From IMG/VR virus record IMGVR_UViG_3300018878_000140, positions 58,053 through 78,052 of that record: a stretch of 20,000 nucleotides of DNA; one strand, 5' to 3'. The notes below the pieces were generated by a model. That model was not told the DNA's origin and did not search any database. It saw nothing but the letters and a program-made list of their open reading frames with translations. Numbering within the stretch: the stretch's first letter is position 1; each line of letters opens with the position of its first letter. This document shows positions 1,424 to 18,041 of the stretch, piece by piece. The position numbers and the translations under genes are program-made. The stretch comes from an uncultured virus (IMG/VR IMGVR_UViG_3300018878_000140). Taxonomy: Duplodnaviria > Heunggongvirae > Uroviricota > Caudoviricetes.

Positions 1424-2542
1424 CTATAAATCTCCTTCTAATAATTTAATTAATTCATCTGATGATATAAATTCGTAACCTTCATTTTGATTTACATACA
1501 TTACGAATTTATCATAATCTGATATTTCATTATCAAGAATATAAGAATATTGGATATTCTGCTCTAAAATAGTTTGATCTATTTCTTGCATTTGTTTATC
1601 CTTTTTATCTAATTCTTGTAATTTTACATTGTTAGAGTTTCTAAAATAGTTTCTAACAATATTCATATTTTCATTAGCATTATTAAATTGAACTCTAATG
1701 TAATCTATTCCTTGTTCTTCCTTAATCCTTTTAATATAATCAATAATATCTTTAGGATCAGATTTAATCAAGTGATCAATATTGATAGTATTATAAATAT
1801 AACTATCAATAGGAATTAGCTCAGTATAATGAGCTCTTTTATTTGGATTATAAAGAGTTACTAGAAATCCTTTTTCTTGTTCCTCTCCAAATCTAAATCT
1901 TAATGGACTTCCATTATAATAAGCATACTCCTGATAACATCCAGGAATATGATAATGTCCCATAAGAATAACCCCTGCACAATTACAAAATGAGTTAATT
2001 GAAAATACAGGAGCATGATTGCTTTTTAAAGTAGCAATTTCAGAACCTTTAAATGAATCTTTAAAAGTTCCATGCATTAAACAAATATCATATCTACCTG
2101 AATTAAATAATACTTCATTATATTCTTCTTCAGGTATACCATATCGTTCTGGAATGCATAAAATATTTAATCCTTTAACTTGTTCGAATTGTATTTTTTC
2201 TACGATCCTGACATCTAAGTTTGGATTATTCATGTAATGATAGAATAATGATAATTGACCATTATCATGACTTTGAGTTCCATCTACTATAATAAGTGTA
2301 GCATTTTTACTAGCACATAAATTAACAATATCATTTACCAATTGCATGGTATATGATATTATAGGATTATTACTCATAAATCTAGAATCAAATATATCTC
2401 CACATATTGCAAGTATATCAAAATCTAAATTTATTAATTTATCTATAAATTGTTGTTTTAGCTGAGTGTACATATAATGCGGATCTAAAGCCCCCATATG
2501 TATATCAGATATTGAGACAATTTTATATACGTCCTTATCCAT
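1424..2542 (-). CDS. SbcD/Mre11-like metallophosphoesterase nuclease
   Basis: Motifs SDIHMG, CGDIFD, GTQSHD, LMHG, MGHYH, YNGSP-RFRFGEEQEKGF. Start moved from 2572 to ATG 2542 (SD GAGG, overlaps the kinase stop codon). Confidence 0.88.
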   Translation of the reverse strand: MDKDVYKIVSISDIHMGALDPHYMYTQLKQQFIDKLINLDFDILAICGDIFDSRFMSNNPIISYTMQLVNDIVNLCASKNATLIIVDGTQSHDNGQLSLFYHYMNNPNLDVRIVEKIQFEQVKGLNILCIPERYGIPEEEYNEVLFNSGRYDICLMHGTFKDSFKGSEIATLKSNHAPVFSINSFCNCAGVILMGHYHIPGCYQEYAYYNGSPLRFRFGEEQEKGFLVTLYNPNKRAHYTELIPIDSYIYNTINIDHLIKSDPKDIIDYIKRIKEEQGIDYIRVQFNNANENMNIVRNYFRNSNNVKLQELDKKDKQMQEIDQTILEQNIQYSYILDNEISDYDKFVMYVNQNEGYEFISSDELIKLLEGDL

Positions 2543-3215
2543 AATATTCCTCAACTGTTCCACGTAGTGCAATTACATTATCAATTGTACCTACTAATCT
2601 TTTAAATACTTTTTCCATATCCATATTAGTAGTATCTATCATGCTGTGCACTGCACCAATAGTATTAACATCTTGTATATATAATCTAGAATAAGCATCA
2701 TTAATCTTCTTATAATCTTCTATAGGAAGTACATCATGCTTATTTCTTTCATGTCCTTCGGCTGCAGCTCTCTCTATAGCAACCTTTGGATCGCATAATA
2801 ATGTGAATTCTAATATATAACTAGAATCAATTATAGGTTTTTTAACCATACTTTCACACTGTTCGATAAATTTCATATTTCCATTTTTAAGTATTCCTTG
2901 ATATACTTTAGTGGATTTAGCAAATCTATCTAATATTACCAAACATCCATCATTTAATGCAGGTAATAAATTATTATTTATATTAATATTTCTAGCGGCA
3001 TTCATTAACAGAATTTCTGTAGTAGGATCCATTTCATTATAAAGAATCATATTACGAATATTTTCTGCTATTTCATTTCCGCCAGGTTCTCTAAAATATT
3101 TAGTATTATAACCTTTATCATTATAATATTCTACTAATTTTTTAGCTTGAGAAGTTTTTCCTGCCCCTTCTCCGCCTTCAAGTATTACTAATAAACCTTT
3201 AGTTATTTTTTTCAT
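2535..3215 (-). CDS. tmk: Thymidylate kinase family dNMP kinase
   Basis: P-loop LEGGEGAGKTSQ, FREPGG, LLMNAAR, VILDRF. Start moved to ATG 3215 (SD GGAGG at 3226-3230). Confidence 0.9.
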   Translation of the reverse strand: MKKITKGLLVILEGGEGAGKTSQAKKLVEYYNDKGYNTKYFREPGGNEIAENIRNMILYNEMDPTTEILLMNAARNININNNLLPALNDGCLVILDRFAKSTKVYQGILKNGNMKFIEQCESMVKKPIIDSSYILEFTLLCDPKVAIERAAAEGHERNKHDVLPIEDYKKINDAYSRLYIQDVNTIGAVHSMIDTTNMDMEKVFKRLVGTIDNVIALRGTVEEYYG

Positions 3216-3242
3216 AATAAAATATCCTCCATATTTATATTT

Positions 3243-3258
3243 CATACTTATAATATAT
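3243..3258 (-). promoter_or_regulatory. Early-type phage promoter ATATATTATAA-GTAT-G upstream of tmk
   Basis: Identical 11-mer also at 18667-18677. Resembles the phiKZ-like early TATATTA core. Confidence 0.55.
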
Positions 3259-3292
3259 CATTATATCTTTATTTCGCTTTAAATTATATTCC

Positions 3293-3304
3293 AACATATT
3301 TGTA
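3293..3304 (+). promoter_or_regulatory. Late-type phage promoter AACA-TATTTG-TA with no downstream CDS
   Basis: Perfect AACA-N6-TA match, pointing into the intergenic hairpin cluster. Confidence 0.5.
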
Positions 3305-3412
3305 AAAGTTATTTGATAACTTTTATGTGATGGTAAGACCGTTGCAAGGTAAAATATTTGTTCATTTTTGTTCTCCGGTACGAACCCCAAGAGGTTAACT
3401 CCTCTTGGGGGT
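3304..3412 (+). ncRNA. Candidate structured small RNA (~110 nt)
   Basis: Promoter motif, then hairpin 3303-3325 (10 bp), hairpin 3326-3346 (9 bp with three G-U pairs that form only on the + strand RNA) and a GC-rich terminal hairpin at 3385-3410. Confidence 0.45.
3385..3410. terminator. GC-rich stem-loop, probable (bidirectional) terminator
   Basis: CCCCAAGAGG-TTAACT-CCTCTTGGGG, a perfect 10-bp stem 9 nt after the stop of the upstream - strand gene. No clear U-tract. Confidence 0.65.
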
Positions 3413-3419
3413 AGTATCA

Positions 3420-3917
3420 TCAAAATTTTTTGTTTTTAAAATAATATGTAATTAATTCACATACTCCGTCCATTAAGCATGATGTAATAAACAAAAACTT
3501 TTCTTGATCGTAAATATCTATAAATTGATAATCGCCATCTATAAAAGTTATATATTCTTTTTCTGATTTTGTATTTTGACCTCTGCGTTCTATCTCAATA
3601 TTAATTGTTCTAGATTCCTTAAGCAATACAAATCCTATGGTAAAAGAATCTTTTTGTTTATAAAACATACTACATGCTGTTGATCTAGTGTAACCCTTTG
3701 GCAGGGTTCCAGTGAATAAATGTAATGAATCATTGTTTCCATACATATACGTATTTCTAAGAATTCTAATGAATTCATCTATACGACACATCTGATCAAA
3801 TGACGGGCTTAATTTTTTACATTTTTTAATAAGTTTTCTATAAGCTCTCCAAGCCTTGATATCAAATTTATGTTTTCGCATAATAATGGGCTTTATAAAT
3901 TCATTAACATTATCCAT
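3420..3917 (-). CDS. Hypothetical protein
   Basis: ORF; start moved to ATG 3917 (SD GAGGTG, 6 nt spacing). Confidence 0.7.
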   Translation of the reverse strand: MDNVNEFIKPIIMRKHKFDIKAWRAYRKLIKKCKKLSPSFDQMCRIDEFIRILRNTYMYGNNDSLHLFTGTLPKGYTRSTACSMFYKQKDSFTIGFVLLKESRTINIEIERRGQNTKSEKEYITFIDGDYQFIDIYDQEKFLFITSCLMDGVCELITYYFKNKKF

Positions 3918-3957
3918 CTTTATCACCTCTATTCTATTTCATTATTTTAATGCTTTA

Positions 3958-4422
3958 TTAAATATATCTAGTAGCTTCGAAGATAATATCTAAATATATA
4001 TTTTTTAAATCATCTGTTAATGGTTCCCATATTTTATTTATTATACTACTATTTTTAGTATTACGATAAATAGTATATGATATATTTTTATCTGTTATTT
4101 CAAATCTATTAGATTTTGGATAATAAGTAACTATAGATTCATTCTTATAACCATCAATTGTACAATACGTGCCCATATCTATATTTATAAAATTTATATC
4201 ATATGTAACACCCCATACAGATTCAGATGGTAACTCTTTTAAACTAAGCAGGAAAGTAATAATATTATCAGAAGCATCAAATATATCTAAATTTAAAAAT
4301 TTATTTATATTATTATTTAATAATTTATTTTCTTTATATATAGATACTATCTTCCATTTAGGTAACTGATTAATATGAATTTTACTTAAACATATGGCAT
4401 GAATTAAATTCATAATATTCAA
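3958..4422 (-). CDS. Hypothetical protein
   Basis: 154 aa ORF, TTG start 8 nt after SD GGGAGG (alternative ATG at 4413). Confidence 0.65.
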   Translation of the reverse strand: MNIMNLIHAICLSKIHINQLPKWKIVSIYKENKLLNNNINKFLNLDIFDASDNIITFLLSLKELPSESVWGVTYDINFINIDMGTYCTIDGYKNESIVTYYPKSNRFEITDKNISYTIYRNTKNSSIINKIWEPLTDDLKNIYLDIIFEATRYI

Positions 4423-5145
4423 CTAAAATACCTCCCAATTAAGATTTTTATATGCATTTTCTATATTTATAATATTATAATATGAATTAACAAGAGAGAG
4501 GAATGTATATTCACAGTCGTTAATATATTTTAAATGATCTGGGTTAGTGAAGTTTAAAACAAATTCATTATAAGAAACACTATTTTTTGATAATTGTAAT
4601 ATAATACATCCATCTATTTCTATACCAAGCTCATTACGAAGCATATAACGATATGCGGCTAATTGTAAAATATATTTAAAAGTAATATGATTACTAGTCT
4701 TATAATCTACTAAATATATTTTACCATTAATTTCATATAATCCATCTAATGTGCCGCCAAAATATTTGCATGCTAAAGATTTTTCATGGAAAATAACTCT
4801 TACGTTTGCTGCATTATTTATATCTGTAAACCATTTTAAAAATGATTGATATGCATTATAAGATTGATTTGGCATAGATGTAGCATCTGCTTCATAATTA
4901 TCATTACTTAAAAAGTTATCTATGTTTTCATGAGCATGATGTCCTACGTTAGCTGCAGCATCTAAAGTTTTAGCATATGATTGATGCTTAAATCCTAAAG
5001 AATTAGCCCAATACATAAGTGAGTCTGAATGTATGCATTTTGAAAGTATTTTTGTAACTCTGGGTACAATTATACCATTATGAATATAGTCAGATTCTAC
5101 ATTTATAGGTGGCATTTTTTCTAATATTTTTACCATTTCATTCAT
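4423..5145 (-). CDS. PD-(D/E)XK family (RecB/Cas4/lambda-exonuclease-like) nuclease
   Basis: VPRVTKIL, VGHHAHENI, FHE, FGGTLDGL...LVDYKTS...LQLAAY. Start uncertain (5145, 5163 or 5217); 5145 overlaps the upstream stop. Confidence 0.85.
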   Translation of the reverse strand: MNEMVKILEKMPPINVESDYIHNGIIVPRVTKILSKCIHSDSLMYWANSLGFKHQSYAKTLDAAANVGHHAHENIDNFLSNDNYEADATSMPNQSYNAYQSFLKWFTDINNAANVRVIFHEKSLACKYFGGTLDGLYEINGKIYLVDYKTSNHITFKYILQLAAYRYMLRNELGIEIDGCIILQLSKNSVSYNEFVLNFTNPDHLKYINDCEYTFLSLVNSYYNIINIENAYKNLNWEVF

Positions 5146-5775: not shown

Positions 5776-5787
5776 AACATCTTATTA
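5776..5787 (+). promoter_or_regulatory. Late-type phage promoter AACA-TCTTAT-TA
   Basis: Perfect AACA-N6-TA 26 nt upstream of ATG 5814. Confidence 0.6.
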
Positions 5788-5813: not shown

Positions 5814-6755
5814 ATGGCAAAAACATACTCTCAAACATACTTATTTGGTCAGTATGGAGAATACGAAAAGAAAATATATGAATTTATTATCAATGCGGAA
5901 CGCATTGATACTAAGAGTGCAGAATTTGATGATATACTTTATGATATTAAACGTAGAAAAATAAGCGACCATTTGGCAAAAATTATAACATCTGATAATG
6001 TTGTGGTTGCTATAAATCCTACAGGTAGAGCATTGCCTAAAGCATTTAAAGCTTTTGTTGCTGCCGATGTTAAAGATGGTAATAAAGTCAAAGTATTTAT
6101 TGATGTTACAGAATGTGTAGTTTATAAAGATGGCGTTTATGTATGTAATAAATTAGATTGGCTTGTAAGTTATGTTATTAATGCTATGACAGCGTATATA
6201 TACGTCAAGGCTGAAAATAAATTATTAGGTAACGCATCAGTTCTTAAAGATGGATGTGATGCATGGGTATCATGCTTCTCTTATATTATAGATAGAATGT
6301 ATAAGATTAGCACAGTACCTCAGATTAAGCGTAGAGTTAATTACTTATCTGCTATATATTATCAAACTAATATAATGTGTAAAGATCTTAAAAAGTTTGA
6401 GGATTCTATCAAGGCTAATGCAATTAGAGTTTCAGGTATTGATTCTAAAGATGCTAGAGTTATGGATATGATGATAGAAGAAAAAGACTTTACAAATATT
6501 GATACATTTGTGAAAGCATTAGGTAGAGTAATTAATCTTAAAGATATTAAAACAAGTAATATTGTTTCATACTGGATGAATGCATTTGGACCTGGAACAG
6601 TATTTGCTTTAGAATATTTCCCTGCATTTTCTATGATGATGACAAATACATATGTTGGAGCATATATTGACCAGCAGATGACAATAGAAAAAGTAGCAGG
6701 GCAATCAATGATTAGATTTTCAAAAACAATTCTTCAGATAGGAGCTAGTGTATAA
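5814..6755 (+). CDS. Hypothetical protein, probable virion/assembly protein
   Basis: 313 aa ORF with SD AGGAGGT and a late-type promoter; translationally coupled (TAATG) to the 1448 aa gene. Function inferred from context only. Confidence 0.6.
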   Translation: MAKTYSQTYLFGQYGEYEKKIYEFIINAERIDTKSAEFDDILYDIKRRKISDHLAKIITSDNVVVAINPTGRALPKAFKAFVAADVKDGNKVKVFIDVTECVVYKDGVYVCNKLDWLVSYVINAMTAYIYVKAENKLLGNASVLKDGCDAWVSCFSYIIDRMYKISTVPQIKRRVNYLSAIYYQTNIMCKDLKKFEDSIKANAIRVSGIDSKDARVMDMMIEEKDFTNIDTFVKALGRVINLKDIKTSNIVSYWMNAFGPGTVFALEYFPAFSMMMTNTYVGAYIDQQMTIEKVAGQSMIRFSKTILQIGASV

Positions 6756-9700
6756 TGGATAAATTGAGCGAAAAAATTATAAGTACGCTCAAGAGTAATA
6801 CATATAACTCTGTTTATCAAAATACATTAGCAAAGCTACCTATTGTTATTACTGAAGAGGGTACTTATATTAATAAAATTGAGATTGATGGAGATTTATA
6901 TTTTGCTGTAACTTCAGAAGATGGTTCAATAAAGGAAACTTATTCAAGCAATGAAATACAAGTTGATGTTAAAGATACAGTATTTACGGATTATAATCCT
7001 GATAATGTAGTTGCTTTAAATAAAATCAATATTGAAAAAGAACTTATCAGAAAATGTAGATTGGTTAATGTTGAAAAGTTCCATTATGATGATACTTGGT
7101 ATAGCCATAGATGCTCTGTAGATAATAGAATAGAAAATTTTGGCATACTCCAAGTTGGTAATCTACCATTTAGATCTTTAGATAAATTGGTTAATAAAAA
7201 ATCATTTATTTGTAGAATGGATCAACTTATATTTACTGGTATAATGCAACCATTTATGTTATTTATTAATCGTAAATTTGTAAATTGGAATAATATTGAT
7301 ATAGTATTTGATTGTGATGAATCTTATTTACTTATTCATGAGGATAAGTATGAATATAAGGATGAAGATGGTAATAAAAAGACTAAATATATATATAATT
7401 ATTATGATCTTAAAGATGCTAATGATATGTATATGATTATTTTACCATATAGTGTAGAATTTGTTGGAACAGAGTCTGATGAAATATGGGACAAAAACTA
7501 TGAAATGCTTTGTAGTTTCTTACAAGATTCTCTTCATCTTAATAATGATAATAAAATTGAAATTGAAGTACCTACAATGTATTCTATATATAAAAATCGT
7601 GGAATGGTTTATAATGTAGGTGCTTGGTTGTTTTCTCAACTTCATATGAATTATCTTGATTCATTATCAGAAATAAGAATTAAAAAGCTTAAAAATATAA
7701 ATCTTGAAAGAAAGATATATGATGATAATGGAAATTTATTAGAAATTTATCGTACTAGATTTAATGCTATGGATAAAGATAGTTATGATATGGAAACTTA
7801 TAATAAGATTTGTTATGGGGATAAATATCGTATTATTAATCATCCTACATTTAAATTTAATGATGATGGTATACTTGATTATGAAAACGGTACTAATATT
7901 TTAACAATATTAGATGAAAGTCTTAAAATTAAAAGAATTGTAAGAAAAGATAAAAAGATCATAATAAATCAGTCATCAGACAATGAGACTTTATTTAAAG
8001 AAAGTTTTATTGTATTTAAAAATGGAAAGTATTATCAAGAATGTGAATTTGATTATTATGATTCTAATATATTTACGATAAATAATGAAAACGAAGATAC
8101 TTTAGATATAATTTCATTTATTCCTGATGATATTGAATATATAAGTAATCATAAAAATCATTTTATAAATAAAGATTTCTACGCTAATAAGATTTTAGAT
8201 TATATACATGATAAATTTATTGAGCCAAAGACAGATGATGAAAGTAAGAAACGTATTAATGATATGGAAGAACTACTTAAAATATCATCAAATAATCTTA
8301 ATTATTTATTCTTAGATTCGTATAAATATGAAGAAAATTTAAATAGTGGATTTAATTCAATAATGAATTATGATCCATTGTTGCTTAATGATTCAATAAA
8401 AACAAGTATTAGATCTAAGTCTATTCGTGGTTCTGAGGCTAATAAATATATTATTAAAGAAGCTCTTAAAGATTATGATAAAGACGGTAAATTATATAAA
8501 CGAGATGCTTTAAAAATTACAAGATGCAAGTATACTGATCATGAATCATATGTACTTATATTTCTTAATGGTGAACTTATAGAAAATTATAGCGAAATGT
8601 ATGTAACATCAAACTATTTTCTTTTACCATTAGATGAAGAGTTTAACAGTGATGATATTATTGAATTGCTCTATTTTACAGATTGTGACAATAATGAAAT
8701 TCATTTTAATATTACTGATAATATGATTGCAAAATTAGAAGAATCTGATGATACTAAATTTGTAAAAACAGATTTGTTCAAAGAATATATCAAATCAGAA
8801 GATATAAAAATATTTGCAGATTATCCTAATAACTTAATTTATAAAGATCTTATAGAAAAAAATAATGATATTGCGTTTAATATTTCTTATAGAAATACTA
8901 ATAAAGATTTATTAGTATTTAAAGATGAAATTGAAAATAAGAATAATAATCTTACAGCAGTATCATCTCGTAAATTTATTTATGAAAGACTCTATGTAGA
9001 TCAAAAAGCATATAGAATTAAATTAGGAGAAAGATTTAGATATTGTGATAACCAAAAACAGTACATGCTATTTATTAATGGTCGTCGTATGGAAGATGAT
9101 ACATTTTTAATCACAATTCCTAAATACACTAGACCTTTCTGGGGTATGTTTTTATATACTGCAAAATTTGTAGAACCTGGTGATAGAATAGAAATATTCT
9201 ATGTGCCCGAGGAATTAAATAATATAAATACTGAAGAGGTTGCACCTTCTACATTTAATATAGATGGTTATATTGAAACTGAGAAGGAGAATCTTAAAGT
9301 TCCATATACGGGTGATTTTTATCTTTATTTTGTTAATGGTAAAAAAATTCCTAATGATGATATAATACCAGTAGATTCTCATACAGTGAAATTAAAATCT
9401 AATCCAGGTTCTCTTTTAAAATTAAATATAAATCCAGTATATAGAGATATCAATAATAATATCGCAAAATATATGCAAAGTAGTTCAATATCTAAATATG
9501 ACAAATTTATTGATATTATTAAAGAAAAATTTACTTATTATTGGTTGGATAGATTGTTTGATGCTCAAATTAAAATATCACAAAATCCAACTGAAGAAGA
9601 AGTAAATAAACTTAAAACTAATGTAGGTACTATTGCGCTTGTTAATGAAATTGTAAGAGATTTCTGGGTCACAGGCGGAGTTGAATACAATAAAATAGAT

Positions 9701-11101
9701 GATAGCGGTAATGGATTTGTTATATATGATAAAGAGCATGATGATTCATTTATTTATGATTATAATTTAGATGAGTATATTAAAACTGATAATAACGGTA
9801 ATATACTTTTACCTTCATTAGATGCTCCATTAGTTATAAATATTAAGAAAAATGATATTATTCTTGAATATATTGATACGTATAAGTATATGACAAATGA
9901 AGCTTATGGTATTAATATATTCGAGATAGGACGTGTTTTGGAAGGTATTAGATTTAAATGGAATTTTTCAGATCATATTGATGGCACTATTGGTGTAATA
10001 GAGCAATATGTAAATGATGAAAAAATAGATACAGAATCTAGAGTATATGATTATCCTGAAGATATTAAATCTAATATAAGTTTTAAATTCAAATTTAATA
10101 CATTGCAATCTACTATAGAAAAGCAAGTAGATATTAAATTCTGTAATGGTATATATTATGGTATTATTGATGAGGATGAACTTCAGTATTATAGAAGAAA
10201 AAATATGCTTTCTCTAAATAATGCAATAGGAGTTGTACCAAAAAATAAAGAAATTCCATCAACTGCAGAGCTGGAAACAATTGAAGAACCTATAAGTATT
10301 CTTAAGATAAATAATGAGATTGTTGATGATATACGTATAATTAATTATAATATGGATATTATATATAACTATATAGCTTATTATATTAAAGAAGATGGTT
10401 CTTATGATTTTGAGAATCCAATAACCGATATTTATGCTATAAAAAATGAATATGCTTCAGGTAATATTGTTATATTTGATAGTGAAGGTAATCTTGTAAA
10501 ACCAGAAGCAGTAATTATTGAAACTATAGAACCGTCTATTTATATATCAGAAGATAAATTACCAGAGATTATGTCTAAATTTGTAGGTAATAAAACTGAT
10601 GGATACCATAGCGAAGTATTACTTCAAGATACAGCAGCTATAGACGATAATTACGTTATCGGAAATAATAATTATTTTATTTATGCATGTCCTAAGAGAT
10701 TGGCATTTGATAATATCGGTAATATGCTAATAAGTTTCAATATGCCAGATATTACTGAAGATTTGATAAAAGATAATCTTGATGAGCATACTACTCCAGT
10801 ATATACAAATGGCGATTTTGATGATCAAAATTTACTTATAAAACTTGATGAGTACAAAATGGAATATATGGGAGAATTTGAATATACTAATAGCTCTAAT
10901 TATACTGAAACGTATGTTATGTGGAAATCTAATGGCTTCTTCACACGTGGGTATGAAGATCAAGAATTCAATATATCAGTCACAACAGATTATGATAATT
11001 CAAAAACTTCTAATAATCAAGTTAGATTAGTAAATACAGCATCTCTAGATGGCGCAAGCATAAATGATGATGTTGTATTCATTGATACATTCTTATTATA
11101 A
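6755..11101 (+). CDS. Large probable virion structural protein (tail/baseplate-like)
   Basis: 1448 aa with recurring hydrophobic-F-x-N-G strands (MLFINRK, IVFKNGK, LIFLNGE, MLFINGR, LYFVNGK) and a C-terminal GIYYG...YFIYACPKRL...YTNSSNYTETYVMWKS segment of the kind seen in phage tail proteins. Confidence 0.6.
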   Translation: MDKLSEKIISTLKSNTYNSVYQNTLAKLPIVITEEGTYINKIEIDGDLYFAVTSEDGSIKETYSSNEIQVDVKDTVFTDYNPDNVVALNKINIEKELIRKCRLVNVEKFHYDDTWYSHRCSVDNRIENFGILQVGNLPFRSLDKLVNKKSFICRMDQLIFTGIMQPFMLFINRKFVNWNNIDIVFDCDESYLLIHEDKYEYKDEDGNKKTKYIYNYYDLKDANDMYMIILPYSVEFVGTESDEIWDKNYEMLCSFLQDSLHLNNDNKIEIEVPTMYSIYKNRGMVYNVGAWLFSQLHMNYLDSLSEIRIKKLKNINLERKIYDDNGNLLEIYRTRFNAMDKDSYDMETYNKICYGDKYRIINHPTFKFNDDGILDYENGTNILTILDESLKIKRIVRKDKKIIINQSSDNETLFKESFIVFKNGKYYQECEFDYYDSNIFTINNENEDTLDIISFIPDDIEYISNHKNHFINKDFYANKILDYIHDKFIEPKTDDESKKRINDMEELLKISSNNLNYLFLDSYKYEENLNSGFNSIMNYDPLLLNDSIKTSIRSKSIRGSEANKYIIKEALKDYDKDGKLYKRDALKITRCKYTDHESYVLIFLNGELIENYSEMYVTSNYFLLPLDEEFNSDDIIELLYFTDCDNNEIHFNITDNMIAKLEESDDTKFVKTDLFKEYIKSEDIKIFADYPNNLIYKDLIEKNNDIAFNISYRNTNKDLLVFKDEIENKNNNLTAVSSRKFIYERLYVDQKAYRIKLGERFRYCDNQKQYMLFINGRRMEDDTFLITIPKYTRPFWGMFLYTAKFVEPGDRIEIFYVPEELNNINTEEVAPSTFNIDGYIETEKENLKVPYTGDFYLYFVNGKKIPNDDIIPVDSHTVKLKSNPGSLLKLNINPVYRDINNNIAKYMQSSSISKYDKFIDIIKEKFTYYWLDRLFDAQIKISQNPTEEEVNKLKTNVGTIALVNEIVRDFWVTGGVEYNKIDDSGNGFVIYDKEHDDSFIYDYNLDEYIKTDNNGNILLPSLDAPLVINIKKNDIILEYIDTYKYMTNEAYGINIFEIGRVLEGIRFKWNFSDHIDGTIGVIEQYVNDEKIDTESRVYDYPEDIKSNISFKFKFNTLQSTIEKQVDIKFCNGIYYGIIDEDELQYYRRKNMLSLNNAIGVVPKNKEIPSTAELETIEEPISILKINNEIVDDIRIINYNMDIIYNYIAYYIKEDGSYDFENPITDIYAIKNEYASGNIVIFDSEGNLVKPEAVIIETIEPSIYISEDKLPEIMSKFVGNKTDGYHSEVLLQDTAAIDDNYVIGNNNYFIYACPKRLAFDNIGNMLISFNMPDITEDLIKDNLDEHTTPVYTNGDFDDQNLLIKLDEYKMEYMGEFEYTNSSNYTETYVMWKSNGFFTRGYEDQEFNISVTTDYDNSKTSNNQVRLVNTASLDGASINDDVVFIDTFLL

Positions 11102-11125: not shown

Positions 11126-11151
11126 AACCCTAGGGAGTAATCCCTAGGGTT
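11126..11151. terminator. Bidirectional intrinsic terminator between convergent genes
   Basis: AACCCTAGGGA-GTAA-TCCCTAGGGTT, 11-bp stem with a GNRA loop; T-rich 3' flank and A-rich 5' flank. Confidence 0.85.
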
Positions 11152-12352: not shown

Positions 12353-12376
12353 CCCGTAGGGCGTTAACCCTACGGG
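12353..12376. terminator. GC-rich stem-loop, probable terminator of the multi-HTH gene
   Basis: CCCGTAGGG-CGTTAA-CCCTACGGG, perfect 9-bp stem. Confidence 0.7.
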
Positions 12377-12416: not shown

Positions 12417-13013
12417 TTACTTTGTTGGAAAATAACCTATAATTTTTAAATAATTTCTAACTGAATTAGCGCATCTTCCGGTCTCTTTTGCTATCTTTGG
12501 AACTGTATATCCAAGCTCCCATAGCTCTATAAAATGCTCTATTTCAGTTTTAGTTATTCGATGTTTAATTTTTCTTTTAGTTTTAGTATGTTGCAAACGG
12601 AACCTAACATTGTTTGATTTAACATTTAACTCTTTAGCAATAGTAGCAATACTTTTATCACGAGTATCCATTTCATTCATTTCTATAACTTGCTCGTCAG
12701 TAAATTTATTTGAATAGCATGTACATTTTGCCGAAGATTTAATACGTTCTCTAATACATGCTCTGCTTCTATGCATTATTTTACTAATAAGACTTATAGA
12801 ATATCCTTTACTACGCAATTCAAGAATTTCTTCTCTTTCTTTAATAGTAGTGAATTTGCGTCCTTTTGTTATAGAATTATAAACCTCAATAGGATCTACA
12901 TCCAATTTTTCAGATATTTCCATTACAGAATATCCAACAGCATACAATTCTTTAGCCATCCGTTTATTGCAATTTTCTATTGCTCTATCGTATTTTTTTA
13001 ATAGCTCCGTCAT
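12417..13013 (-). CDS. Tandem helix-turn-helix DNA-binding protein (4 HTH repeats)
   Basis: GYSVMEISEKLDV, GYSISLISKIMHRS, DKSIATIAKELNVK, GYTVPKIAKETGRC; SD GGAGGAG. Confidence 0.8.
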   Translation of the reverse strand: MTELLKKYDRAIENCNKRMAKELYAVGYSVMEISEKLDVDPIEVYNSITKGRKFTTIKEREEILELRSKGYSISLISKIMHRSRACIRERIKSSAKCTCYSNKFTDEQVIEMNEMDTRDKSIATIAKELNVKSNNVRFRLQHTKTKRKIKHRITKTEIEHFIELWELGYTVPKIAKETGRCANSVRNYLKIIGYFPTK

Positions 13014-13026
13014 TTTAATTCTCCTC

Positions 13027-13064
13027 CATTTTAATAAATAAAATTATGACTTTATTAAAATGTC
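13027..13064 (-). promoter_or_regulatory. Late-type promoter GACA-TTTTAA-TA (13064->13053) within a 12-bp inverted repeat abutting the RBS
   Basis: CATTTTAATAAA (13027-13038) / TTTATTAAAATG (13051-13062). Confidence 0.55.
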
Positions 13065-18015: not shown

Positions 18016-18041
18016 TAGAGGGTGGAGTGATCCACCCTCTA
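18016..18041 (+). terminator. Intrinsic terminator after nrdG
   Basis: TAGAGGGTGGA-GTGA-TCCACCCTCTA, 11-bp stem with a GNRA loop and T-rich tail. Confidence 0.85.

Follow-up and report, generated by a model that had tools for sequence, protein, structure and literature searches.

We report a candidate late non-coding RNA in a stretch of 20,000 nucleotides (nt), hereafter the window, from an uncultured Caudoviricetes virus (IMG/VR record IMGVR_UViG_3300018878_000140). Within the window a spacer of 204 nt (3216-3419) separates the thymidylate kinase gene tmk from a 168-amino-acid (aa) gene upstream of it, both on the minus strand. On the plus strand of this spacer lies an orphan copy of the late promoter motif of the phage (AACATATTTGTAAA, 3293..3306), i.e. 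a copy without a gene behind it, and its predicted start (A3304) is followed by two hairpins, a U-rich linker that mirrors a Shine-Dalgarno (SD) sequence plus start codon, and a GC-rich hairpin. We consider it plausible, with the arguments about evenly balanced, that a functional late RNA is made here, which would be an antisense small RNA (sRNA) directed against ribosome-binding sites (RBS); pairing with ribosome-binding regions is the most likely role that its features suggest. The original prediction had listed the motif, the two hairpins, a T-rich stretch and the GC hairpin in a gap of ~200 nt, and direct reading of the sequence found all of these elements where it had placed them. Its proposal of a protein sponge or an antitoxin mimic found no support, as nothing points to either.

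The window forms the final 20 kb of a 78-kb viral fragment (G000), which shows 5 base differences in 78,052 to a 258,973-bp record (G001, ~96% complete by estimate). All genome-wide statistics given here use G001 as the full-length copy, with a crude call of open reading frames (ORFs) that yielded 248 genes and was refined by SD; intergenic DNA makes up 9.3% of G001. Judged from its marker genes, the source of this ~259-kb genome (GC content 29%) is an AR9-like jumbo phage of the PhiKZ/AR9 type with its own RNA polymerases (RNAPs). These markers comprise a PhiKZ gp28-like vertex protein (PF25614), NrdD, a Cas4-like exonuclease, tmk and an RNA polymerase beta-like protein (phrog_2962, E 6.5e-68).

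Late promoters of AR9 have the consensus AACA-N6-T(A/G), with the last base as start site, according to the available part of the AR9 report (PMC5312081), and the sequence AACA(3293-3296)-TATTTG-TA(3303-3304) on the plus strand fits this consensus. The bare AACA-N6-TA pattern, from which the original prediction deduced a late promoter, is not significant on its own and is in fact depleted in the window (8 copies versus 27.3 ± 5.3 in shuffles). What stands is that the site is a strict copy of the real late class of this phage, a second motif that emerged from upstream regions without the early motif and that could be sharpened to RACAT-N5-TAAW. Of its 38 copies in G001, 31 lie just upstream of genes, 4 within genes and 3 are intergenic orphans; 30 of the 38 are intergenic and in sense orientation 11-109 nt ahead of a start codon, and one more is found 23 nt ahead, overlapping the 3' end of the gene before it. 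Virion-type genes of the window that are preceded by the motif lie at 5814 (+), 13013 (-) and 15034 (-), with late promoters at 5776 (+), 13064 (-) and 15085 (-) and predicted starts at 5787 (+), 13053 (-) and 15074 (-), respectively, and the genes served by it include the PhiKZ gp28-like virion protein and the RNAP beta-like subunit. With a core score of 14.1 bits in the position weight matrix (PWM), the copy at 3293-3306 matches the real sites (minimum 10.7, median 14.07), and a relaxed threshold with 51 matches genome-wide still leaves exactly three intergenic orphans. As originally claimed, there is no gene for it to serve: the plus strand after the motif holds no SD and no ORF longer than 23 aa.

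Within coding sequences RACAT-N5-TAAW is strongly depleted relative to shuffles of synonymous codons, with 3 sense copies versus 11.1 ± 3.4 and 1 antisense copy versus 10.4 ± 2.6, i.e. 4 copies on both strands compared to about 21 expected. None of the other motifs in a set of 61 with equal composition is depleted to this degree (ratio 0.21; decoy median 0.94), the next lowest (0.39) being an overlapping variant. As late-promoter words are purged from both strands of genes, this suggests that the short motif alone suffices for initiation by the non-virion RNAP, and an intact orphan in a freely mutable spacer is unlikely to be mere noise. The promoter at 3293-3306 belongs to the right class and is probably active.

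Following the AR9 start rule, the predicted RNAs were taken to begin at the last A of the motif. In the window the RNA would open with a 5'-terminal hairpin of 9 bp starting right at +1 (3304..3324, +), which as DNA is a 10-bp palindrome, TAAAAGTTAT-TTG-ATAACTTTTA (3303-3325). It is directly followed by a second hairpin, TGTGATGGT-AAG-ACCGTTGCA (3326..3346, +), whose 9 pairs include 3 G-U pairs. The original prediction had this hairpin form only in plus-strand RNA, and indeed it is present in the minimum free energy (MFE) structure and the centroid of the plus strand and absent from the MFE structure of the minus strand. The region 3303-3412 folds with -36.8 kcal/mol (z -4.8) on the plus strand and with -28.8 kcal/mol (z -4.1) on the minus strand. 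Most of this signal is strand-symmetric, because two perfect palindromes fold on either strand, and the second hairpin alone is strand-specific.

The two hairpins are followed by a U-rich, mostly single-stranded linker (3347..3384, +). The T-rich stretch noted earlier is indeed present (3355-3375), although it is better described as part of a mirror image of an SD plus start codon, formed by CUCC (3373-3376) and CAU (3363-3365). In both the MFE structure and the centroid, nucleotides 44-63 of the RNA stay unpaired; nucleotides 64-82, a segment that includes the CUCC (70-73) and the 3' end of an 18-nt core, fold into a weak hairpin when 110 nt are modelled but are open when 130 nt are. This core (3359-3376) is complementary in 18 of 18 positions to GGAG-AACAAAA-ATG-AACA, which covers the start region from SD to codon 2 of a gene 109 kb away (G001 248216..248518; a 100-aa product of no known family). 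The match reaches an E value of 3.3e-4 (blastn-short, within the genome) while the flanks are unrelated, and shorter matches of the linker fall on further start regions. Pairing of the linker with phage messages, which the original prediction had proposed as a check, was evaluated against 247 start regions and gave an excess of duplexes over shuffled linkers: the best duplex reaches -30.7 kcal/mol (60 shuffled linkers: -21.3 ± 2.1), and 166 start regions reach -12 kcal/mol or lower (86.5 ± 26.5 for shuffled linkers). In sequence and predicted fold the linker shows the hallmark of anti-RBS sRNAs, an open segment able to pair with the SD and the start codon in target mRNAs.

Next in the predicted RNA is a perfect 10-bp hairpin with 7 GC pairs and a 6-nt loop, CCCCAAGAGG-TTAACT-CCTCTTGGGG (3385..3410), a 3' stem-loop that is shared by both strands. 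It has the GC-rich stem-loop of an intrinsic terminator. As it begins 9 nt past the stop codon of the 168-aa gene on the minus strand, it is first of all the 3' hairpin of that gene, and it is one of 75 intergenic cases among 86 perfect GC-rich hairpins in G001 (stem at least 8 bp, at least 4 GC pairs). Such a hairpin occurs within 60 nt of the stop codon in 78 of 247 genes, and first-order Markov samples of 60 kb contain 0-2 of them. The reading of this hairpin as the RNA's own terminator could thus not be upheld; it follows the stop of the upstream gene and has no U-tract. We observed that the 3' hairpins of many spacers (in the window e.g. 11126-11151, 12353-12376 and 18016-18041) form a loose sequence family, with examples such as CCCTAGGGAGTAATCCCTAGGG and CCCGTAGGG-loop-CCCTACGGG, and one 24-nt hairpin is exactly duplicated in G001 (130232 and 205861). 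When perfect hairpins with a stem of at least 10 bp are counted, the genome total again stands at 86, and 15 of these contain no more than 2 GC pairs.

All three orphan late promoters of the genome share one layout, i.e. a hairpin from +1, a single-stranded linker with CUCC (GUUCUCCGG, CUCUCCUUAAA and UUUCUCCUAA, respectively) and then a GC hairpin. Orphan 2 (AACATATTTATAAA; G001 180260-180443, corresponding to G000 ~20217-20400, outside the window) would give rise to an RNA of ~165 nt from the minus strand, which is antisense to an SD-preceded hydrophobic ORF of 20 aa (MTKIFLVLILYSIFYDNVYS) between two convergent genes, an arrangement reminiscent of type I toxin-antitoxin pairs. Orphan 3 (G001 205846-205961, minus strand, outside the window) would yield an RNA of ~105 nt with a 14-bp +1 hairpin and an unpaired UUUCUCCUAA; its GC hairpin carries a U-tract on the strand of the RNA, not on that of the protein gene which it follows. 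The +1 hairpins of the window orphan and of orphans 2 and 3 have energies of -8.0, -3.2 and -11.1 kcal/mol, respectively, and 4.7% of random intergenic positions (n=600) reach -8 kcal/mol or lower. At the 31 late sites that serve genes, three show a 5' hairpin of -5 kcal/mol or lower and one of -6.5 or lower, and their RNAs lead straight into the SD. With a CTCC rate of 0.0025 per nt in spacers (true SDs masked), a CUCC is expected by chance with P ~0.09 per 40 nt, and in all three linkers with P ~8e-4. For orphan 2, duplexes with start regions are likewise in excess (121 versus 39.8 ± 18.9) but the best energy is not, and orphan 3 shows a modest excess in the best duplex energy only.

The possibility that the three orphan RNAs are paralogues was rejected, as an alignment shares only the promoter and the type of hairpin. 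In agreement with the earlier statement that the candidate does not belong to a known family, Rfam scans of the whole window gave no match (the best hit in 3200-3440, NsiR1, scored 16.4 bits against a gathering threshold of 39, on the hairpin only), and no family was found in the 20-kb stretches of G001 that carry the other two orphans and the twin copy of the spacer. There is no tRNA in the spacer or the window.

A precedent for such start sites comes from AR9: according to the available part of PMC5312081, the motif is present at 94 late starts, and antisense transcription is driven by seven late promoters. All seven are listed in Table S3 (Lavysh et al. 2017, PMC5312081), and the late starts classified there as 'Antisense' include 75478(-), with a step height of 3757, and 115851(+); the accessible text of this report assigns no function to the antisense starts. 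We examined these two of the seven in the genome record (KU878088). The first lies in the g090/g091 spacer and faces the g090 hairpin, with a predicted RNA of ~70 nt starting AAUGUCCUCCUGU; the second lies in the g141/g142 spacer, and its predicted RNA of ~85 nt contains CCCCUC and then a hairpin followed by a U-tract. In the predicted folds the CCCCUC is unpaired, and the CCUCCU of 75478(-) has one C and one U paired and four bases unpaired in the MFE structure. Both antisense starts are situated wholly within their spacers (75401-75538 and 115749-115932), and the strand opposite 75478(-) has AGGAGG and then a 21-codon ORF. As predicted for the window, transcription from an AACA-N6-TA late promoter begins at the final A with no ORF to follow, in a spacer of co-directional genes, on the opposite strand and facing the 3' hairpin of the upstream gene. 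The predicted AR9 RNAs also resemble the window RNA in their C-rich, anti-SD-like stretch (CCUCCU, CCCCUC) ahead of a hairpin and in their predicted length of ~70-85 nt. However, they have no +1 hairpin and no sequence similarity to it, a genuine U-tract follows the hairpin in 115851(+) but not in the window RNA, and their starts come from measurement, that of the window from prediction only.

From these sequence elements, the motif statistics, the layout common to the orphans, the complementarity and the AR9 precedent for start sites, all of which are direct observations, we infer transcription, the RNA ends, pairing in vivo and its effect. The spacer would be a compound control region, in which the late promoter on the plus strand stands back to back with the tmk promoter. 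Late in infection, initiation at A3304 would produce a non-coding RNA composed of the 9-bp +1 hairpin, the second, plus-strand-only hairpin, the ~38-nt linker with CUCC and CAU, and the GC hairpin. Its length would be ~107 nt if it ends at the GC hairpin and ~125-135 nt if it reaches the U-run at 3427-3437, and it would be longer still if transcription reads on as antisense to the 168-aa gene. Of the discrete ~110-nt RNA proposed originally, a structured predicted RNA stands, with the same layout in two further orphans and in AR9, while a discrete 3' end is not assured. Most likely the RNA would base-pair with translation starts, in cis on read-through RNA of the upstream operon at a GGAG-N7-AUG mini-ORF, or in trans at the start region of the 100-aa gene and, with weaker pairing, at those of many other phage genes. 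In both cases ribosome binding would be blocked or the duplex cleaved. By sequence, anti-RBS action in trans and cis-antisense action on the mini-ORF are not separable, and both would need plus-strand RNA.

Several observations weigh against a functional RNA at this site. By composition alone three orphans are unremarkable, because shuffled intergenic DNA yields 3.9 ± 2.0 motif copies on both strands. The flanks of the site score low in the PWM (-9.9; leave-one-out range of real sites -13 to +18), and a TATATTT element, present ~12 nt upstream of about ten real sites, is missing. The +1 hairpin, the CUCC and the targets were noticed post hoc, after the loci had been chosen; the +1 hairpin of orphan 2 is weak; and that an orphan points at a neighbour's hairpin is not independent evidence, because any orphan in a co-directional spacer must do so. 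Furthermore, start regions resemble one another, which inflates the 18-nt match as well as the duplex counts, and CUCC and CAU are explained equally well by a mini-ORF with SD and ATG on the other strand. The sole relative with DNA (G001) is identical across the spacer and thus uninformative on conservation or covariation, and one tmk relative (P0007) has a Zn-ribbon ORF immediately ahead of tmk and fused to it, so the spacer is not conserved across the clade. Behind the GC hairpin the next 10 nt hold 3 T on the minus and 4 T on the plus strand, compared to at least 5 T on the better strand for 69 of the 75 intergenic hairpins of this class, which makes a discrete 3' end of the plus-strand RNA doubtful. 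The low flank score, the missing TATATTT and U-tract and the number of orphans expected by chance would all suit an ordinary spacer, made up of a 3' hairpin and the tmk early promoter, where the late motif is accidental or tolerated, an RNA is absent or functionless and the palindrome is an incidental AT-rich symmetry. The lack of enrichment of the bare motif, the 15 AT-rich perfect hairpins of the genome (stem at least 10 bp, at most 2 GC pairs) and the missing RNA family match agree with this explanation, which we regard as possible but on balance rather unlikely. It has to account for a motif that is purged five-fold in genes, beyond all 60 decoys, and fewer than one orphan would be expected under equal purging pressure. 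It also leaves the +1 hairpin and linker CUCC of all three orphans and the 18/18 match to a start region as coincidences, and AR9, in the available data, fires from sites with the same layout.

Alternatively, the functional unit could be located on the minus strand, where the mini-ORF GGAG-N7-ATG (3309..3376; ATG 3365..3363, stop within the first hairpin) would encode an 18-aa peptide, MNKYFTLQRSYHHIKVIK. On read-through RNA it could be expressed as a small peptide or a leader-type ORF, and the plus-strand RNA would then merely be its cis-antisense partner, similar to a type I toxin-antitoxin pair. The mini-ORF may have a genuine start region that works on read-through RNA, or it may be no more than the complement of the linker. 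Its SD is well spaced and its start region is of a type used by real phage genes (GGAGAACAAAAATG), orphan 2 is likewise opposite an SD-preceded ORF, MTKIFLVLILYSIFYDNVYS, and since the GC hairpin has no U-tract, read-through of the upstream operon is plausible. Nevertheless we hold this scenario to be unlikely. The 18-aa peptide MNKYFTLQRSYHHIKVIK is basic and has no hydrophobic stretch as would be expected of a type I toxin, the ORF facing orphan 3 comprises only 4 codons (read directly from the spacer sequence), opposite the C-rich stretch of AR9 115851(+) there is no usable ATG, and small ORFs preceded by an SD number ~30 across the 110 spacers in any case. Nor is the mini-ORF a tmk leader, because tmk has its own promoter downstream of it. 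Far less probable is a function of the palindrome at 3303-3325 as a DNA operator, bound by a dimeric regulator between the tmk early promoter and the divergent late promoter. Although it is a perfect, strand-symmetric inverted repeat (two 10-bp arms around a 3-bp centre) that spans +1..+22 relative to the late start and lies ~60-80 bp ahead of the tmk start, the 259-kb genome contains no second copy (other matches reach no more than 11-13 exact nt, or 16 nt with a single mismatch), and the other two orphans begin with different +1 hairpins, in one case including G-U pairs, and this speaks for RNA. A protein gene, finally, is hardly conceivable in the 62-aa ORF that spans the whole spacer (3235..3423, minus strand), even though its frame is open throughout and gene calls on 14 contigs of the same phage include a 61-aa version of it as a protein. 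It has no SD and no Pfam family and crosses the hairpin and the tmk promoter. The conservation of this ORF, which the original prediction had named as an observation that would count against an RNA, was not seen: among 5.8 billion clusters it has no relative but itself, whereas the adjoining tmk has ~50 at 57-69% identity, and we judge it not to be a gene.

The proposed late anti-RBS RNA can be compared to known base-pairing RNAs. Several sRNAs of Firmicutes (e.g. RsaE/RoxS, RNAIII) mask Shine-Dalgarno sequences via C-rich motifs. Like these, the window RNA would be short and structured, with its own promoter and an unpaired C-containing stretch complementary to a GGAG-type RBS; unlike these, it is phage-encoded, with a promoter of the phage late non-virion RNAP type, its CUCC is embedded in a U-rich stretch that also covers the start codon, and it has no Rfam match. 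In type I toxin-antitoxin pairs such as Ibs/Sib, an antisense RNA lies opposite a very small ORF. The window is similar in that the antisense RNA fully overlaps a very small SD-preceded ORF, but the 18-aa peptide is basic and not hydrophobic, and a hydrophobic ORF of 20 aa faces orphan 2 only. The available part of PMC11512511 describes 11 mapped sRNAs, of which 3 are intergenic, for the Pseudomonas jumbo phage 201phi2-1. Like the window candidate, these are short transcripts, whose start and terminator lie close together, from a giant phage that encodes its own RNAPs; they differ by lineage and promoter type, are mostly derived from 5' untranslated regions and have no sequence relation to it, and the accessible portion of that report does not mention anti-RBS content. 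In a limited literature search, which is no proof of absence, we found no description of anti-RBS sRNAs from late promoters of AR9-like phages.

In giant phages with their own RNA polymerases, gene timing is attributed mainly to two promoter classes, and to our knowledge post-transcriptional control by phage RNAs is almost unexplored in them. If the window RNA acts as proposed, the early-to-late switch would gain a second level of control in the form of an anti-ribosome-site RNA from a gene-less late promoter, and a function could be assigned to the late 'antisense' starts of AR9, which are mapped but unexplained in the available part of PMC5312081. Going further, one may tentatively envisage an undescribed class of sRNAs in AR9-like jumbo phages, made by the non-virion RNAP from gene-less late promoters antisense in spacers, with the mirror image of an RBS and a shared 3' hairpin, which shut off translation late in infection. 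The window RNA would then be one of three in its genome and the abundant AR9 start 75478(-) the first measured member; taken jointly, this is a reading that we think unlikely to hold in full. If true, such a class would amount to a switch at the RNA level, by which selected phage (or host) mRNAs are no longer translated once infection is late. The layout offers a simple search rule for uncultured phage genomes, namely an orphan late motif followed by an unpaired CUCC and a shared hairpin, and the purging of the late motif from both gene strands is useful in its own right.

Concerning the surrounding genes, tmk (2535..3215, minus strand, 226 aa; PF02223, E 7.9e-30) is the downstream gene of the spacer and is preceded by an SD, GGAGG (3228..3232, minus strand), and by an AR9-type early (virion RNAP) promoter, TATATTAT-AAGTAT-G (3243..3257, minus strand), with G3243 as the predicted start. 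This promoter (TATATTATAAGTATG) is a perfect copy of the early motif, and its end lies 28 nt from the start codon. In G001 we found 24 copies of TATATTAT-N6-G, 14 of which are intergenic and in sense orientation within 150 nt of a start codon. The word TATATTATA is enriched upstream of genes (18 regions versus 1.5 expected), and once aligned the early sites read TATATTATAA-N3-TG, which equals the AR9 early consensus, AAATATATATTAT-(6N)-G(+1), as given in the available part of PMC5312081. A tmk relative from another assembly (P0040, 59% identical) has an over-extended N-terminus that holds MIYYK...GGYFIMKK, the translated trace of this promoter and SD, both of which are conserved in it. We rejected a riboswitch or leader of tmk as an explanation of the spacer structures: these are absent from the early tmk mRNA because the early promoter lies downstream of them. 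Scans for sigma-70 and terminator consensus sequences found nothing above shuffles, with 0 terminators in 2500-4500. The product of the upstream ORF (3420..3926, minus strand, 168 aa) has no Pfam or PHROG family; it recurs in G001 at 99% identity, and a distant 342-kb phage (G002) encodes one weak relative.

This distant phage and the twin record G001, which is 100% identical across the spacer, are the only relatives in IMG/VR. In cultured phages a blastn search with 2500-4500 gave no DNA match; tmk of cultured jumbo phages is at most ~30% identical, and the 168-aa protein has no match there. As proteins, ~50 relatives of tmk are found at 57-69% identity, three of them on contigs of ~256-260 kb, and a scan of metagenomes returned a single 1.6-kb fragment, without the tmk start. 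A scan of genome contigs yielded 80 loci at most 46% identical to tmk, which we take to be cellular tmk genes, since all those listed by source belong to bacterial genomes or metagenome-assembled genomes. As a replicate, G002 contains 50 copies of the early motif (23 sense-upstream) and 14 of the strict late motif (6 sense-upstream); the strict late motif is thus not shared, and no usable orphan late promoters are found in G002.

Apart from the spacer, some further loci attracted our attention. At 12417-13013 (minus strand) the window encodes a 198-aa protein with several helix-turn-helix stretches (HTH_38, sigma-70 region 4-like, HTH_23), which may be a DNA-binding or sigma-like factor of the phage and which is preceded by a strict late promoter (13064..13051). 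A 1448-aa protein without Pfam or PHROG family is encoded at 6755-11101 (plus strand); the late promoter at 5776 is predicted to drive its gene together with that of the PhiKZ gp28-like vertex protein. Outside the window, 2.2 kb of G001 (165783-168054, corresponding to G000 ~32618-34877) hold no gene of at least 60 aa in the crude ORF call; this stretch may contain a gene that is split or interrupted by an intron, or it may be non-coding. At 175.4-176.9 kb of G001 (L021 15459-16921), likewise outside the window, five tRNA genes (Leu-UAA, Asn-GUU twice, Asp-GUC and Pro-UGG) form a cluster, and copies of a ~30-nt repeat that contains GTAGTAAATGGAGTG are scattered among them.

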